Both the position numbers and the translations under genes were made by a program. Positions 3,434 to 48,189 of a stretch of 64,000 nucleotides of DNA are shown here, in pieces; within the stretch, counting starts at the first letter, position 1, and every line of letters begins with the position of its first letter. Source of the stretch: Eubacteriales bacterium (lineage in GTDB: Bacteria > Bacillota > Clostridia > Oscillospirales > CAG-272); contig JAZUQQ010000057.1 of NCBI GenBank assembly GCA_045605765.1, forward strand, positions 49,421 to 113,420, in the 5' to 3' direction. The notes beneath the pieces were generated by a model. That model was given only the letters and a program-made list of their open reading frames with translations, ran no database searches and had not been told where the DNA came from.

Positions 3434-5827
3434 TTAACCTCTAAGCGTAATTCCGAGCTGTTTTTCGACAGATGCGATGATCTTAGTCGAGGTCTTTTCC
3501 GACTCGTCCTCGGTGAGAGTATGGTCTGCGGCGCGAAGCGTTACTCTGAACGCAAGGCTCTTTTTATCTGCACCGAGTCTTTCTCCGACGTAAACGTCAA
3601 AGAGTGTGACTGCCTCGACGAGCTTACCGCCCGCCTTGCGGATAACGTCCTCAATAGCACCCGACTCGGTATTCTTATCGCAAACGAACGCGAAGTCACG
3701 GTTTACGGGCGGATATTTTGGAAGCGGCTTATAATGCTTATCGAAATTACTGAAATTAAAGAGCTTTTCGAAATCTATATCGGCAAGATACACGGGAGCG
3801 TCAAAGCCGTAATTTGCCGCAACCTTCGGGTGAAGCTGACCGATAGTTCCGACTACCTCGAATCCTCTTGCGATAATATTTGCACATCTTCCGGGGTGGA
3901 ATACGGGGTTATTTTCATTTGATACGAACTTAACCTTAGCTATTCCCGCGTCGGCACAGATAGTTTCTGCCATACCTTTAAGTGTATAGAAATCGCCGTT
4001 ACCGTAGAAGCCAAACGTGAGTCTTGTAGGCTCTTCGGGAAGCTCATTTTTATCTTCATTTGGAATATAGATATGTCCGAGCTCGTACATAGCAACGCTA
4101 TCCGAGTGGTAATTATTATTTCTCGCAAGAACGCCGAGAAGCGACGGAATGAGGGTGGTTCTCATTACGCTAGTATCTTCTCCGAGAGGATTGGTAATAA
4201 CGACCTGCTTTCTTTCGGGAGCGTCCTCGGGAAGATTTATCATATCAAGCGTCTTCGGAGAAACGAAGGAGAAGGTCACGCTCTGCGTGAGTCCGAGAGC
4301 GCAAAGAAGGCTATGAAGTCTTGCCTTATACGCCTGCTTGGGAGTAAGAGTTCCTGCCTTGACCGCGCACTTAAACGGAGTCGAGGGAATGTTGTTATAT
4401 CCGTGAATTCTTGCAATTTCCTCGGCAATATCGTTCATTCTTTCGAGGTCTGCGCGATAGGAAGGAGCGGCGAGAACTCCATTTTCGATGGTACAACCGA
4501 GAGATTCGAGAATAGCTACCATCTTATCCTCGCAAACGTCTGTTCCGAGGAAAGCGTTTATTTGATCTGCATCAAATTTAACGGTAACGGGAGCTTTCTT
4601 ATTCTTATATACGTCGATGACACCGCCGACAACTTCGCCGGCTCCGAGAAGATTTACAAGCTCGCAAGCCCTATCAAGTGCAGGCATTGTATTCTCGGGA
4701 TCAAGTCCCTTTTCAAAGCGGCTACTCGACTCGGTTCTCATTCCCTGAGCCTTTGCGGCAAGTCTTACCGACGAGCCGAGGAAGTTTGCAGACTCGAACA
4801 CGACTGTGGTCGTCGTATCCTTGATCTCGCTATTTGCTCCGCCCATTACACCTGCCAGTGCGACTGCCTTCTTTTCGTCGGCAATTACGAGGGTATCGGA
4901 GCTGAGTATATGGTCATTATCATCAAGTGACTTGAAGTTTTCGCCCTCAGATGCTCTGCGGACCACTATCTTCTTACCTTCGAGCATCGCATAGTCAAAC
5001 GCGTGCATAGGCTGACCGTATTCGAGCATAACGTAGTTGGTAATATCAACGATATTATTTATAGGACGGACACCCGAAGCACGAAGTCTCATTCTGAGCC
5101 AAAGCGGCGAGGGCTCGATCTTTACGTTTTTAACAACTCTTGCGCTATATCTCGGGCAGAGCTCTGCATCGTCAACGTCAACAGAGATATATTCGGAAAT
5201 ATCTCCACTTCCCTCTTTTACTACGGGGGTCGGGATTTTAAGCTCTCTACCGAAGCTCACCGCGCTCTCTCTTGCAAGACCGATAACCGATAGGCAATCA
5301 GGGCGGTTAGAGGTTATCTCGAACTCGACCGATTTATCGGAGAGCATAAGAACGTCCTTTATATCCTTGCCGATCTGATCTTCTCCGACAAAAGAGTTCA
5401 TTATGAATATACCGTTTTCATCTGCGCCCGGCATATCGTGGGTTGTGAGGTCAAGCTCGCCTATCGAGCAGAGCATACCGTCCGACTCAACTCCGCGGAG
5501 CTTACCCGATTTAATAACCACTCCGTTCGGAAGCTTTGCAACCGGAACAGCAACCGGAATTATCGCACCCTCAAAAATATTCTGTGCGCCTGTAACTATC
5601 TGCCTCTCGGCATCGCCCGTATATATCTGACAGATCTGAAGATGATCGGAATCGGGGTGCTTCTCTATTTTGAGAATTTTTCCGACGACCACGTTTTCTA
5701 TATTCCCTCCGAGCAAGGTATATCCCTCGACCTTAGAGCCGGTATCTGTCATACGGTCACAGTAATCCTTTATATTTACGTCGCTGACATCTGTGAAATC
5801 AGCAAGCCATTTCATTGACAAATTCAT
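3434..5827 (-). CDS. pheT: phenylalanine--tRNA ligase beta subunit
   Basis: 797 aa with typical bacterial PheT length and N-terminus (MKWLADFTDV..., tRNA-binding domain). AAGGAGG lies 8 nt upstream. It starts 16 nt after pheS. Confidence 0.93.
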   Translation of the reverse strand: MNLSMKWLADFTDVSDVNIKDYCDRMTDTGSKVEGYTLLGGNIENVVVGKILKIEKHPDSDHLQICQIYTGDAERQIVTGAQNIFEGAIIPVAVPVAKLPNGVVIKSGKLRGVESDGMLCSIGELDLTTHDMPGADENGIFIMNSFVGEDQIGKDIKDVLMLSDKSVEFEITSNRPDCLSVIGLARESAVSFGRELKIPTPVVKEGSGDISEYISVDVDDAELCPRYSARVVKNVKIEPSPLWLRMRLRASGVRPINNIVDITNYVMLEYGQPMHAFDYAMLEGKKIVVRRASEGENFKSLDDNDHILSSDTLVIADEKKAVALAGVMGGANSEIKDTTTTVVFESANFLGSSVRLAAKAQGMRTESSSRFEKGLDPENTMPALDRACELVNLLGAGEVVGGVIDVYKNKKAPVTVKFDADQINAFLGTDVCEDKMVAILESLGCTIENGVLAAPSYRADLERMNDIAEEIARIHGYNNIPSTPFKCAVKAGTLTPKQAYKARLHSLLCALGLTQSVTFSFVSPKTLDMINLPEDAPERKQVVITNPLGEDTSVMRTTLIPSLLGVLARNNNYHSDSVAMYELGHIYIPNEDKNELPEEPTRLTFGFYGNGDFYTLKGMAETICADAGIAKVKFVSNENNPVFHPGRCANIIARGFEVVGTIGQLHPKVAANYGFDAPVYLADIDFEKLFNFSNFDKHYKPLPKYPPVNRDFAFVCDKNTESGAIEDVIRKAGGKLVEAVTLFDVYVGERLGADKKSLAFRVTLRAADHTLTEDESEKTSTKIIASVEKQLGITLRG

Positions 5828-45076: not shown

Positions 45077-45106
45077 ATGGTATCATACGTTAATTCGGAG
45101 GAAAAA

Positions 45107-46459
45107 ATGAAAAAAATCATATCAATATGCGCGCTTTTGCTCGCATCGCTTCTTATATTTACGGCATGCGACGAAAGCACTCCGTGTGACGTGCACACCG
45201 ACGAAAACTCCGACGGCATCTGCGACGTCTGCCGCGAAGAGGTCTCCCTCGACTGCACCTCACATACCGACGCAGATTCGGACGGAAAATGCGACGCTTG
45301 TGGCGACGAGGTATCCGCTCCCGCTATTATGATCGATTACACCATCGTCGTTACCGATCAGGACGGTGAGAAGATCGAAGGTGCAGAGCTTACTATATAT
45401 GCAGGCTTTGACAAGGCGGCGAGCGCAACAACCGACTCTGACGGAAAAATATCGGTAAAGCTTGCCGAGGGTCAGTACACTGTGAGCTTTGATCTACTTC
45501 CTGACGGGTATTTTCCCTACGAGGCATCTACTCTCATACTGGTATCTTTGGAAACAAACAGCACCGAAATTCTCGTCGAGAACACAATTCCCGACGGAAG
45601 CAAGGAAAGGCCCTTCCCGGTATCTTTCGAAAATCCGAGTATATCGCTTCCCGCAAATGCATCTTTCTATTTTTCACTTGGCGGCGGAAGGCGAATTATG
45701 AAGCTTTCTGCGACAGATATTGAGCTCGTCTACAATGACAATACTTACACTCCCGACAGCAACGGAAATATTGAGATAAAATTCACTCCCGAAAGTCAGT
45801 TCTCACCTACAATTATTAAATTCACAAACAAATCAAATAGTGAAAAGATAATCGATCTGACCTTTGAGTCTATTCTCGGCTCGCCCGAACGTCCCTTCGA
45901 GGCAAAGATCGAGACAACATACTCAACTCGTATAGAAAAGGAAAACACTCTGTATTACCAGCTTATCGCCGATAAAGCGGGGTTTATCTGCGTAACCTCC
46001 TATACACCTCACGGCACGATAATGCTTTACAACAAGACGACTATGGAAGTTTCTGCATATACACAGGGCAAGGTTTGCGAGTATATTTGGGTGAACACAG
46101 GAGATGAGCTTTCGGTAGCAATCGCTTCCACAAGCAAGGACGATATCAGCAGCGTGGATTTTCTCCTTACTTATGCAAAGGGTGACGCGGATATGCCGAT
46201 CATTCTGCTTGACAATACGGTAAATTTCTCAATTCCCGCAGGAAAAGAATACAGCTTCGTTTCACTGCTTCTCGGGGCCGACACATTTAAAATCAAGGAC
46301 AAAAACGTAACTGTCAAGATAAACGGAACTGAGCTTACTGCCGACGAAAACGGAAATATTGAATACCGCTTTGCTCCGGGAGATCTTATTACTATATTAA
46401 ACCTCACCGAAGAACGTCACGAGGTTACTATACGGTTAACAGCCTCTACCGAGCAATAA
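45107..46459 (+). CDS. lipoprotein with duplicated HTDxxSDGxCDxC motif and beta-sandwich-like modules
   Basis: Lipobox IFTAC, with GGAGGA RBS at the MKKIISI start. Motif copies are CDVHTDENSDGICDVCREEV and CTSHTDADSDGKCDACGDEV. It also contains EGQYTVSFDLLPDGYFPY. Confidence 0.8.
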   Translation: MKKIISICALLLASLLIFTACDESTPCDVHTDENSDGICDVCREEVSLDCTSHTDADSDGKCDACGDEVSAPAIMIDYTIVVTDQDGEKIEGAELTIYAGFDKAASATTDSDGKISVKLAEGQYTVSFDLLPDGYFPYEASTLILVSLETNSTEILVENTIPDGSKERPFPVSFENPSISLPANASFYFSLGGGRRIMKLSATDIELVYNDNTYTPDSNGNIEIKFTPESQFSPTIIKFTNKSNSEKIIDLTFESILGSPERPFEAKIETTYSTRIEKENTLYYQLIADKAGFICVTSYTPHGTIMLYNKTTMEVSAYTQGKVCEYIWVNTGDELSVAIASTSKDDISSVDFLLTYAKGDADMPIILLDNTVNFSIPAGKEYSFVSLLLGADTFKIKDKNVTVKINGTELTADENGNIEYRFAPGDLITILNLTEERHEVTIRLTASTEQ

Positions 46460-46530
46460 CACAAAAAGGAACTCTTAGGGGTATCTGCGATCGAGCAGTA
46501 TCAAATTGAATAATACCTACCGACAGGAAA

Positions 46531-46565
46531 AGGACGAAGAATAATTAAAATTCCTCGTCCTTTTT
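46531..46565 (+). terminator. intrinsic terminator
   Basis: AGGACGAAGAA-n9-TTCCTCGTCCT with one mismatch, followed by TTTTT. Confidence 0.75.
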
Positions 46566-46611
46566 CTTGACAAGCACTGACTTAATTAAAGACACCAAAG
46601 CAATAATAATT

Positions 46612-46661
46612 TTGTCAATTTCCCAAGCTGTATTGACAAATCGGCAGAAATGTGGTACAAT
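46612..46661 (+). promoter_or_regulatory. consensus extended -10 promoter with overlapping palindromic operator
   Basis: TTGACA (46633-46638)-17 nt-TACAAT (46656-46661), preceded by TGG. The palindrome TTGTCAAT-N12-ATTGACAA (46612-46639) overlaps the -35. A third TTGACAA lies at 46567. Confidence 0.75.
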
Positions 46662-46667
46662 ATACAC

Positions 46668-46822
46668 GCTACACAAATTGCATATGTTTATCCGATGAAG
46701 GGAAAATACTTTGGCAAAAAGTGTTTTCTCTCTTTCCTCATACCTTCATCGGTTAGGCATTTGTGTAGCAACAATGAGAGGGAGGCATTTTTTCGGTGCG
46801 TTCCTCCGGGAGCGCACTTTTT
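46668..46822 (+). promoter_or_regulatory. structured 5' leader ending in an intrinsic terminator (attenuator / candidate riboswitch of unknown class)
   Basis: Nested helices: GCTACACAAAT/ATTTGTGTAGC (46668-78 / 46759-69), CCGATGAAGG/CCTTCATCGG (46692-701 / 46743-52) and GAAAATAC/GTGTTTTC (46702-09 / 46721-28). Next come a purine tract GAGAGGGAGG and the terminator GTGCGTTCC-tccg-GGAGCGCAC + TTTTT (46796-46822). The RBS GAGGGAG and the ATG at 46841 follow. Confidence 0.6.
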
Positions 46823-46840
46823 ATATACTGAGGGAGATAT

Positions 46841-47167
46841 ATGAACAATAATGATATACCAAGAAAAATAATAGATATTACCGGCGTAGAACTTACACCC
46901 GGAGAGCCTGCCGTTTGTCTTGGCAACGGAGAGCAAGGTTTTGAGTGTTGTTGCGATGAGTGCGACTACTATTTGCTTTGTTTTCCCGAATTTGATCCAA
47001 AAAGCAAAAGAATTAACAAAACAAAAATCCCACACACCTACTATGACAAAAGTAACGCAAAGGCACTTTTGACATCTGCATATCAAAAGCCTATGCGTTA
47101 CCTTCCGGGAGGTAGAAAAAAGCCTCCCTTGTATATGAACAAGGGAGGTGGCACGGCAATGCCGTGA
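46841..47167 (+). CDS. small cysteine-rich protein (108 aa ORF; conserved-looking core ~55 aa)
   Basis: GAGGGAG RBS 4 nt upstream. The core reads ITGVELTPGEPAVCLGNGEQGFECCCDECDYYLLCFPEFD. The C-terminal half is basic and low-complexity, and it overlaps strong hairpins, so the true end is uncertain. Confidence 0.5.
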   Translation: MNNNDIPRKIIDITGVELTPGEPAVCLGNGEQGFECCCDECDYYLLCFPEFDPKSKRINKTKIPHTYYDKSNAKALLTSAYQKPMRYLPGGRKKPPLYMNKGGGTAMP

Positions 47168-47545
47168 CGGAGGGATTGTAAAAGTAAAAACTTATTGTAA
47201 AACAATCCCTCATTCGCTTTGCGACAGCTCCCTTTACACAAGGCGAGCCTTTTGTTTGTGCAAACCTATTTGTTTGCAAATAGCCATAAGTTTTTGTAGT
47301 CCTTAATTCAGCCTTTCGAACCACTGCATTTGTGGACGCATATGCGAAAGTTATATGCCTAGCACGGCTCGGTGTGATATTGTCGCAAGGCGACAGTGAT
47401 ATGAAAGCCTGTGACTTTCGTGATATTATATTCGCCATCTCAACTCGCTAGTGAATAACACTAGGCATCAGCCGAATATCACTGCGCATCTGCTCTATAG
47501 CAGGTGCGCGTGAGAGTTCCTTTTTTCATATCAGATTGATATTTA
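47123..47545 (+). other. hairpin-dense untranslated region with TGATAT hexamer array (candidate structured RNA or protein-binding array)
   Basis: At least 9 local hairpins, including 10-bp stems at 47123-48 and 47170-211, a GAAA-capped stem at 47338-58 and an 11-bp stem at 47484-509 followed by T6. There is a long-range complement ATGCCTAG/CTAGGCAT (47355-62 / 47461-68). TGATAT occurs 6 times. A G-U pair in the last stem favours the + strand. Confidence 0.5.
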
Positions 47546-47575: not shown

Positions 47576-48099
47576 TCAAACCACGATTTCGAGCTCTTTT
47601 CGGATAAATTCACCTACTTTTTCTGGCTCGATATTAAGCGAGAACGCAAACTCCTCTTTTATTATTTTTTCCGCAGAACGCAAAACAGATGCGTCCGAGT
47701 CCGACAGGCGTTTACTACTTTCCGAGAGTTCTTTACCTTTAAGATATATACATCCAATCATAAGCAAAAGCTCCTCGTGAGAACCGTTGTGAAGTATATT
47801 ATAAAAGACTGTGCACGCGTTTTTCTATCGTCTATCCAGCTTATACTATTCTCTTTTACGCCATGGAGAATATCGAGTATCTCCTTTTCGGTGAGAACGT
47901 AGCGCATTTTTGCACAGAGCGTTACGTTATCGGTAGCGACGTATATCGTTGACGCTTTGGTATTTATCTGTTCAAGAACGTAGTAATTTCTCTCGCCGAT
48001 CATCGGAGAGAGAGTCATATCCTTAATATCGTTTATCCTACATATTCCGTTTGAGCCGTAAACAACATACTCCCCTACTTTATATTTACATTTATTCAT
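47576..48099 (-). pseudogene. CarD_CdnL_TRCF-family transcription regulator, interrupted by a 1-nt frameshift
   Basis: The N-terminus MNKCKYKVGEYVVYGSNGICRINDI...YYVL is CarD-like. The frame breaks after ..DDRKTRAQSF, and the protein continues in the -1 frame (YNILHNGSHEELLLMIGCIYLKGKEL...). The junction is a T4 run (about 47803-47806 on +). GGAGG RBS present. Confidence 0.7.
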
Positions 48100-48189
48100 A
48101 AGAGAGACCTCCAAAGCAAATTATTTTGTAATAAAAAGGCGTATAGCTTACAACTGGACTTACGCCGTTAAGCTACACGCTGTGCTTGT

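Follow-up and report, generated by a model that had tools for sequence, protein, structure and literature searches.

What is the long structured RNA that precedes a small Cys-rich protein gene in a gut-type Clostridia genome, and does it switch transcription of this gene on and off? The leader lies in the window, i.e., the whole stretch of 64,000 nucleotides analysed here from an Eubacteriales bacterium (GTDB lineage Clostridia, Oscillospirales, CAG-272; GenBank assembly GCA_045605765.1, contig JAZUQQ010000057.1, positions 49,421 to 113,420 of the forward strand). It stands upstream of an open reading frame (ORF; 46841-47167, + strand, with its ATG at 46841) that encodes a small Cys-rich protein, conserved over a core of approximately 55 amino acids. 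The original prediction, made from the letters alone, had proposed a riboswitch or a protein-dependent attenuator of unknown class, driven by a near-perfect promoter with a palindromic operator. Based on comparative sequence analysis we consider it likely that the element is a promoter-coupled transcription-attenuation leader, belonging to a family not previously described, and that it drives accessory (moron-like) genes in host chromosomes as well as in prophages.

Promoter and fold of the leader in the window

The promoter is of the sigma-A type (+ strand; consensus scan) with the -35 box TTGACA at 46633-46638, a 17-nt spacer and the -10 box TACAAT at 46656-46661. It agrees with the consensus at 11 of 12 positions and has a TG at 46653-46654 (extended -10), exactly as originally described, and 46633-46661 is the top promoter-like site of the 2-kb region. 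Transcription would start approximately 6-7 nt past the extended -10, and the first transcribed bases would enter P1 of a long irregular hairpin (P1, P1b, P2 and P3) capped by a G-N-N-A-A loop.

The region 46666-46845 has a minimum free energy (MFE) of -67.5 kcal/mol (z = -6.4), and none of 200 dinucleotide shuffles folds as well. Specifically, on the + strand the MFE fold pairs 46668-46677 with 46760-46769 (P1), 46684-46690 with 46754-46760 (P1b), 46692-46701 with 46743-46752 (P2) and 46702-46712 with 46718-46728 (P3, 11 bp), where P3 is capped by the pentaloop GGCAA (46713-46717) and followed by an unpaired CU tract (46729-46742). The three-helix leader of the original prediction is thus retained, but P3 comprises 11 bp and a 5-nt loop instead of 8 bp and an 11-nt loop. 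The sensor-like long hairpin as a whole (P1, P1b, P2, P3 and the CU tract; 46668-46769) is identified by MFE and z-score, by covariation and by a covariance-model match of 133 bits. On its 3' side are, in order and on the same strand, the linker AACAAU (46770-46775), conserved in the consensus of 91 members, the purine tract GAGAGGGAGG (46776-46785), an intrinsic terminator (46795-46822; consensus scan) and the ribosome binding site (RBS) GAGGGAG (46831-46837). The terminator stem (46795-46818) has 10 pairs, of which 6 are G-C, followed by TTTTT; a terminator with five U residues just before the RBS had been foreseen, but with a shorter stem of 9 bp at 46796-46817.

Conservation and covariation of the leader

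Upstream of nearly all sampled homologues of the Cys-rich ORF we find the same set of elements: a promoter with an extended -10 box is followed by P1, a long hairpin and a purine tract, and then by a terminator and the RBS. The leader is accordingly conserved at homologous loci, which was one of the checks proposed together with the prediction. Two variants can be distinguished. Class A is the window-like leader. In class B the promoter reads TTTACA-17-TGTGATATAAT, P1 differs in sequence but is again complementary (GCCAAACGAAC/GUUCGUUUGGC), and P1 is followed by an additional, inserted hairpin. A sporulation-sigma promoter in class B was considered and rejected, since the sequence in question, GGUAUA...UAUACC, is the inserted leader hairpin and is located downstream of the ordinary promoter just given.

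A second proposed check, covariation among the homologous leaders, gave support for P1, P2, P3 and the terminator. Among 90 distinct sequences aligned to the model, in an alignment that was fitted to the P1 and terminator pairs and so favours them, these two helices are 97.3% paired and 13 of their 20 pairs have changed on both sides; a plain MAFFT alignment agrees for P1. None of 500 shuffles attains any of the five measures used, and slid registers are paired to 29-54%. For the terminator (90 distinct sequences), 99.6% of the cells are paired, the upper stem covaries and the U-tract is invariant. P2 and P3 covary in class A. RNAalifold, when given plain MAFFT alignments, recovered no helices other than P1 and the terminator because the interior is too divergent, and the interior helices were therefore tested by mapping of the window fold and by comparing duplex energies of cognate and non-cognate strands (see below).

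The family consensus (91 members) has the invariant sequence UUUUUCGGUGCG...GCGCAC-U5 as well as GGUAAAA, P1 as GCCACACAA/UUGUGUGGC, AAUAU after P1 (J1/2) and ACAAU before the purine tract; a U-run followed by CGGUGCG is also invariant in the family. The apical loop conforms to G-N-N-A-A and in the unbiased gene-anchored set it is GGUAA in 45 cases, GGCAA in 4, GUUAA in 3 and GGAAA in 1, with GAUAA present in L057. The pairs that close the pentaloop covary (CCUU/AAGG, CUUU/AAAG and AUUU/AAAU). Moreover, the distance between promoter and hairpin is fixed: in 75 of 91 diverse members the last base of the promoter motif TGnTAnnnT is placed exactly 6 nt ahead of where P1 begins, compared with 2.4% of random 26-mers. 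Promoter, leader and terminator move as one unit.

Alternative helices and a proposed switch

The purine tract had been predicted to pair either with the CU tract or with the 5' arm of the terminator, and both pairings exist and are kept in relatives. To describe them we divide the leader into five strands. S1 is the 5' arm of P3. S2 consists of the P3 3' arm and the CU tract (46717-46732 in the window, thus covering the start of the CU tract) and can pair with S1, forming P3, or with S3. S3, the switching strand (46776-46793), contains the purine tract GAGAGGGAGGCA, GCR and the U-run, and its possible partners are S2 and the 5' half of the terminator. The terminator itself is divided into S4 (5' arm and loop) and S5 (3' arm). 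In the window, the predicted antiterminator hairpin (46775-46808, + strand) pairs S3 at 46775-46789 with S4 at 46795-46808.

When class-A leaders are aligned, 87.7% of the cells are paired for S2:S3 (16 pairs) and 89.5% for S3:S4 (13 pairs), and 4 of the S3:S4 pairs have double changes. The duplexes formed by cognate strands are also the more stable ones: for the 105 distinct S2/S3 combinations the energy is -15.9 kcal/mol compared with -10.8 kcal/mol for non-cognate strands, and the corresponding values for S3:S4 are -13.9 and -10.3 kcal/mol. Compensatory pairs can be followed between subfamilies, e.g. GCAAAUUCC/GGGGUUUGC in L037, CGUUGAUUCC/GGAGUUGACG in L071, UUUCC/GGAAA in L054 and GCUCC/GGAGC in L068. 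The S2/S3 helix extends to 14 contiguous pairs in L037 (GCGCAAAUUCCG/CGGGGUUUGCGU), and L019 likewise has 14 pairs. When transcripts are cut before S5, S4 is predicted to be paired to S3, i.e., in the antiterminator, in 85 of 86 members, and for the full-length transcript the terminator state is predicted to be more stable by 5.8 kcal/mol on average. The mutually exclusive terminator and antiterminator pairings that had been read into the locus are supported, in a conserved structured leader located between a strong promoter and an RBS.

We propose that S3, which lies 3' of P1, would choose between two exclusive partners. If captured by S2 it would form an anti-antiterminator or pseudoknot-like helix, the terminator S4:S5 with its U-tract would fold 20-25 nt before the RBS, and the gene would be off. 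If P3 instead holds S2, S3 would pair with S4 in the antiterminator hairpin and RNA polymerase would read through. In the predicted folds of truncated transcripts the antiterminator comes first, and the switch would therefore be a kinetic one. We infer that the regulated step is the capture of S3 by S2, starting from the unpaired CU toehold and displacing S1, during a pause at the U-run, and a trans-acting factor would set the balance between the two partners of S3. TTNTTT is the NusG-dependent pause motif of B. subtilis, and by analogy the conserved U-run between S3 and S4 would fit a pause site.

Some observations weigh against this switch. The Wilcoxon test for the difference between cognate and non-cognate energies (p about 1e-18) ignores sequence relatedness. 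Within close subfamilies the variation in S2:S3 and S3:S4 is mostly one-sided (G-C to G-U), and the clearest compensation is seen between subfamilies, which were aligned by anchors and RNAduplex and by no independent method. Furthermore, S2:S3 together with intact P1 and P2 would make a pseudoknot, which seems to require a bend of the hairpin at J1/2 given that the linker has only 6 nt.

Attenuation by a translated leader peptide (ribosome-mediated) was ruled out: an ATG ORF of at least 8 codons preceded by a Shine-Dalgarno (SD) sequence is present in only 3 of 91 leaders, and no ATG is conserved at one alignment column.

Another candidate is a small-molecule riboswitch, in which P1-P2-P3 together with an S2:S3 pseudoknot would be the aptamer for a global signal (e.g. 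a nucleotide second messenger), and where the ligand would lock S3 and thereby cause termination. Covarying helices, a mutually exclusive expression platform and conserved unpaired blocks (AAUAU in J1/2, ACAAU and the U-run) are all in keeping with such a sensor. So are the downstream genes, which are heterogeneous and mostly surface- or envelope-related (see below); cyclic-dinucleotide riboswitches have mixed regulons, resembling this gene set, and are also found in phages. However, the length of P2 varies and class B tolerates a whole extra hairpin, which makes a fixed ligand pocket uncertain and weighs against a classical riboswitch while it does not weigh against attenuation. In addition, few unpaired nucleotides are invariant outside the expression platform, the fixed promoter-to-P1 spacing is atypical of riboswitches, and there is no coherent metabolic gene association. 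Taken together we regard a riboswitch as rather unlikely.

Distribution of the leader and the genes that follow it

To follow the leader independently of the Cys-rich ORF, metagenome contigs and IMG/VR were scanned with an RNA-only pattern, TGGTAAAA-N60-90-TTTTTCGGTGC. Among the matches listed from metagenomes, 121 were examined and 75 of these have the terminator, but only 4-5 of the 75 precede a Cys-rich gene. Metals or thiols had been suggested as ligands because of the Cys-rich product, and on this gene association the suggestion is not supported. A covariance model (R1) built from 49 diverse copies detects one copy in the window, with the score given above, 82 matches in the 80 genome loci retrieved via homologues of the Cys-rich ORF, and 63 matches in 100 metagenome loci from the ORF-independent pattern. 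In the case of IMG/VR, 70 of 80 loci among the pattern matches listed are true matches (110-139 bits).

The genes that follow the leader are unrelated to each other. Their products include lipoproteins (DUF4839 and tRNA_anti-like), zinc-ribbon/DZR proteins, some of which also have TM2, small PASTA-domain membrane proteins, WG-repeat, Wzy_C and BspA-LRR+SLH proteins and an ABC ATPase, and many of the products belong to no family; in the examined loci they do not share one pathway or transport function. A same-strand ORF of at least 50 amino acids preceded by an SD sequence begins within 60 nt of 80 of 90 leaders, compared with 13.7% of random positions, and the association between leader and gene is therefore in cis. 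This criterion (SD sequence plus start, with a random control) replaced an orientation test on the longest open frame (64 vs 24), which was too crude.

The same numbers bear on the idea that the terminated RNA of approximately 150 nt is itself the product and acts in trans as a small RNA, e.g. with its CU tract against SD sequences, expression of the ORF being secondary. The RNA has its own strong promoter and strong terminator, and the unpaired CU-rich tract is complementary to RBSs of the GGAG type. Short structured RNAs with high expression are also reported from phages of Blautia, Ruminococcus and Lachnospiraceae in an IMG/VR survey (PMC10690425), and these may or may not include the present motif. 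Against this stand the 80 of 90 copies that have a co-oriented SD sequence and ORF within 60 nt of the U-tract, which leaves no room for a second promoter, and the conserved cis partner of the CU tract. We therefore hold a trans-acting small RNA to be very improbable.

On five metagenome contigs (L102, L108, L157, L170 and L171) an identical upstream gene end, promoter and leader is followed by different cargo genes, namely two different lipoproteins and two different zinc-ribbon proteins. By sequence comparison this indicates probable cassette exchange at the leader boundary, and since identical promoter-leader units are joined to different cargo the module constitutes the 5' edge of a variable cargo slot. 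Such units (L102, L108, L157, L170 and the phage cargo slot) would also fit an element that is not regulated at all, where the 5' hairpin would stabilise the mRNA, the terminator would be a leaky insulator or reduce dosage for accessory-gene cassettes, and the module would persist mainly by travelling with these cassettes through recombination. That promoter, leader and terminator travel together at fixed spacing, and that each cargo gene is followed by a terminator of its own, in the manner of morons, also agrees with an unregulated element. It would, however, leave unexplained the compensatory upkeep of three exclusive helices across subfamilies, as well as the energetic poise between antiterminator and terminator, and we find it improbable.

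Leader copies in phages

The motif is very common in IMG/VR phage contigs. The phage cassette has the order promoter, leader, variable cargo gene and a strong terminator of its own (6054-6083 in L204), and is located between early genes (an anti-repressor, phrog_2593, and phrog_6721) and a block of three genes encoding an endonuclease (phrog_93), an exonuclease (phrog_3953) and a 918-aa polymerase. The cargo gene encodes a PASTA protein, a DUF4839 lipoprotein (phrog_29396), a 350-aa protein or another product. For the PASTA protein, which occurs on 502 contigs, annotations exist under Hungatella hathewayi and under MULTISPECIES Clostridia; the presence in H. hathewayi means that cultured carriers exist. 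The 918-aa polymerase matches phrog_4291 with 1373 bits and has a DFDGD motif and a C-terminal helix-turn-helix. Its family carries the label RNA-dependent RNA polymerase, and we take it to be probably a YonO-like single-subunit DNA-dependent RNA polymerase. A phrog_4291 protein of approximately 920 aa is present in 85 loci, e.g. L278:10602-13358 and L204:7034-9790, two genes downstream of the leader cassette. BLAST searches with the window region against GenBank phages, and with the phage-type leader against PLSDB plasmids, gave no match.

The strong phage association of the motif speaks for protein-dependent antitermination, where a host or phage protein would bind the P3 pentaloop hairpin (in a boxB-like manner) or P1 and hold S2 in P3, which would leave S3 available for the antiterminator, or would be loaded onto RNA polymerase as is lambda N. 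The G-N-N-A-A pentaloop with its variable third base and covarying closing pairs is in line with this, and so is the sequence conservation of P1, the pentaloop and the terminator base, which goes beyond what pairing needs. A candidate for the trans-factor of the pentaloop hairpin might be phrog_16126, a 122-aa phage protein with the arginine-rich N-terminus MGRAERRRAQKCEQKAK that is encoded in 47 phage or metagenome loci (e.g. L278:6637-7005, L204:3068-3436 and L217:5251-5619). This N-terminus resembles the RNA-binding motif of lambda N, a resemblance that we treat as a lead. On the other hand, phrog_16126 has no annotated function, the window and the 80 host loci do not encode it, many leader-carrying phage loci lack it as well, and no boxA-like element was recognised. 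Antitermination by such a protein is, in our judgement, possible but should be viewed as tentative. As to what sets the balance in the proposed attenuation leader, we favour an RNA-binding protein or a polymerase-associated factor, recognising P1 or the pentaloop hairpin of P3, over a metabolite.

Comparison with known RNAs and regulatory systems

The Rfam scan suggested with the original prediction was carried out, and in the window and 25 other loci the leader matches no Rfam 15 family. Specifically, at the gathering threshold only two tRNAs were detected in the window, and at E<=10 the region 46400-47500 gave no more than chance-level matches over the leader, e.g. Phe_leader with 28 bits compared with a threshold of 55, a match that is due to the terminator. 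Nothing was detected over the leader in 15 further loci at the gathering threshold, or in 10 further loci at E<=0.05. Moreover, T-box (RF00230) was not matched in the permissive searches (46400-47500 at E<=10; 10 further loci at E<=0.05) and the downstream genes are unrelated to amino acids. Full-text literature searches gave no description of the motif. Two surveys report thousands of unnamed candidate structured RNAs in gut microbes and phages (PMC8040213, Genome Biol 2021; PMC10690425, IMG/VR, 2023); some candidates are highly expressed and some have terminators, and they include RNAs from phages of Blautia, Ruminococcus and Lachnospiraceae (PMC10690425). The leader architecture, gene associations and mechanism are not described in either survey (PMC8040213 and PMC10690425), where the comparison was made by description and prior cataloguing without characterisation is possible.

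With classical intrinsic-terminator attenuators and riboswitch platforms of Firmicutes (e.g. trp/TRAP, pyr/PyrR and T-box) the leader shares its placement between promoter and RBS, the exclusivity of terminator and antiterminator, a third anti-antiterminator strand and a U-run before the terminator, which is a possible pause site. It differs in lacking a specifier, a T-box sequence, PyrR and TRAP sites and a leader peptide, and in that the promoter is within the conserved unit and the downstream genes are mutually unrelated.

The nut sites of lambda and P22 appear similar in having a promoter-proximal hairpin with a GNRA-like G-N-N-A-A pentaloop upstream of a terminator, in their phage context and, for part of the phages, in a nearby small protein with an arginine-rich N-terminus. 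We take the likeness of the P3 pentaloop to boxB of these phages as no more than a lead. In contrast to nut, no boxA was found and many host copies lack an arginine-rich protein nearby; the leader's own local antiterminator helix also implies passive, not processive, antitermination. The lambda PR'-6S RNA-tR' region with Q, and the morons behind it (e.g. stx), resembles the leader with respect to a strong constitutive-looking promoter, a terminated transcript of approximately 150-200 nt and accessory genes directly downstream. Here the leader differs by being a covarying RNA with an antiterminator and by the cargo having a terminator of its own, and neither a Q-like protein nor a Q-binding element was found.

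HK022 put, B. subtilis EAR and Tn916 canT are likewise structured leader RNAs of mobile elements upstream of terminators, possibly acting without a dedicated protein (PMC11658703). Identity with canT was rejected, since canT is a much longer and undefined element whose activity needs 341-452 nt with no defined motif (PMC11658703). EAR is in Rfam, where the leader has no match, and the conserved local strand exchange of the leader with the adjacent terminator is not needed by put, EAR or canT.

Upstream DNA, the Cys-rich family and neighbouring genes

The palindrome over the promoter is real and exact: TTTGTCAAT (46611-46619)-N12-ATTGACAAA (46632-46640) is an inverted repeat with 9-nt arms that are 100% complementary, each one base longer than first noted, and its right arm overlaps the -35 box. 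As an operator that is part of the motif it did not hold up, since its conservation is limited to the class-A leaders that precede the Cys-rich gene. Many class-A loci keep the left half-site TTGTCAAAT, which is missing from class B and phage copies; the promoter surroundings of class B, phage and other copies differ from those of class A. Judged from its distribution the palindrome is outside the RNA motif, and it may be a transcription-factor site particular to the Cys-rich gene subfamily. A CtsR- or Spo0A-type reading of the TTGTCAA boxes is a poor fit.

A third TTGACAA box had been reported further upstream and is found at 46567-46573 (+ strand), inside the block CTTGACAAGCACTGACTTAATTAAAGACACC that is conserved in class-A loci. 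TTGACAA occurs 24 times in the window compared with 9.5 expected, an excess due to its containing the -35 consensus, and the distal box by itself is therefore weak evidence. Immediately upstream, a terminator-like hairpin with a T-run (46532-46565, + strand; GGACGAAGAA...TTCCTCGTCC and then TTTTT) closes the gene at 45077-46459. It is missing from the consensus scan list because its loop exceeds 8 nt, and the CTCGTCC-T-run-CTTGACAAG junction in this region recurs in homologous class-A loci.

The Cys-rich ORF has 1461 homologues with six invariant cysteines (C26, C36-38, C41 and C47) and the shared core DITGVELTPGEPxVCLGNGEQGFECCCDECDYYLLCFPEFDPK, and profile searches of Pfam, NCBIfam, PHROGs and PDB gave no family for the protein. 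At least 497 loci are present in species-representative genomes, all of which are metagenome-assembled genomes (MAGs) of uncultured Clostridia, Oscillospiraceae or Eubacteriales. Some genomes have two or more copies, in tandem at L019 (2768-3658) and L043 (2764-3644), and several MAGs have two loci with tandem or dispersed paralogues (e.g. L004 and L039, L007 and L052). Each paralogue has its own promoter, leader and terminator, and class A and class B leaders can share one genome. Many matches are located at the ends of contigs, suggesting that assemblies break where the module is repeated.

In the window the ORF encodes 108 aa compared with approximately 67 aa in most homologues, the C-terminal 40 residues being present only in the closest relatives; this part (47000-47167) overlaps convergent terminator-like hairpins (47107-47128 on the + strand and 47148-47123 on the - strand). 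Between the Cys-rich ORF and a convergent CarD-like gene there is, at 47348-47431 (+ strand), a sub-threshold match to Gut-1 RNA (RF01706; 31.3 bits where the gathering score is 50, and E = 6e-4 for 1.1 kb searched) that comprises three hairpins with GUGAUAU repeats between them. The CarD/TRCF-RID-domain gene (47576-48114, - strand) appears split into two adjacent ORFs, 47758-48114 and 47576-47767, which may reflect a frameshift or two separate genes. Upstream, the gene at 45077-46459 (+ strand) encodes a 460-aa lipoprotein-like protein with N-terminal Cys-rich repeats of the CDxCxxE type (HTDENSDGICDVCREE..., HTDADSDGKCDACGDE...) followed by a prealbumin/SpaA-like domain. The neighbours in the window are genes for secreted proteins or lipoproteins, the CarD-like gene and ftsZ, and the window copy is outside any prophage. 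At L039, a tetrahydrofolate (THF) riboswitch (RF01831, 84.7 bits; 4801-4899, + strand) is located 1.8 kb downstream of the class-B leader locus and is unrelated to the motif.

Implications

It is conceivable, and we offer this as a proposal that may well prove wrong, that the leader is the RNA receptor of a regulatory system common to gut Clostridia and their temperate phages, where one trans signal co-ordinates, in each community, dozens of accessory, surface and exclusion-type genes that are not related to each other. As the signal one may envisage an antiterminator protein, of host or phage origin, recognising the boxB-like pentaloop, or a nucleotide second messenger. If so, host genes such as that for the Cys-rich protein and the morons of prophages would respond to one and the same signal.

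If the attenuation reading is right, the leader represents a very abundant and uncatalogued cis-regulatory RNA of the gut microbiome (at least several hundred copies), which controls prophage genes of the lysogenic-conversion type in Lachnospiraceae and Oscillospiraceae together with host genes of unknown function. Its effector would be either a new riboswitch ligand or a new antitermination factor of Gram-positive anaerobes. The compact module (promoter, sensor, antiterminator and terminator in approximately 190 nt) is a ready part for genetic tools in Clostridia, and the covariance model R1 could be used to annotate the regulon across metagenomes. Finally, the leader would provide a handle on the timing of prophage cargo expression.

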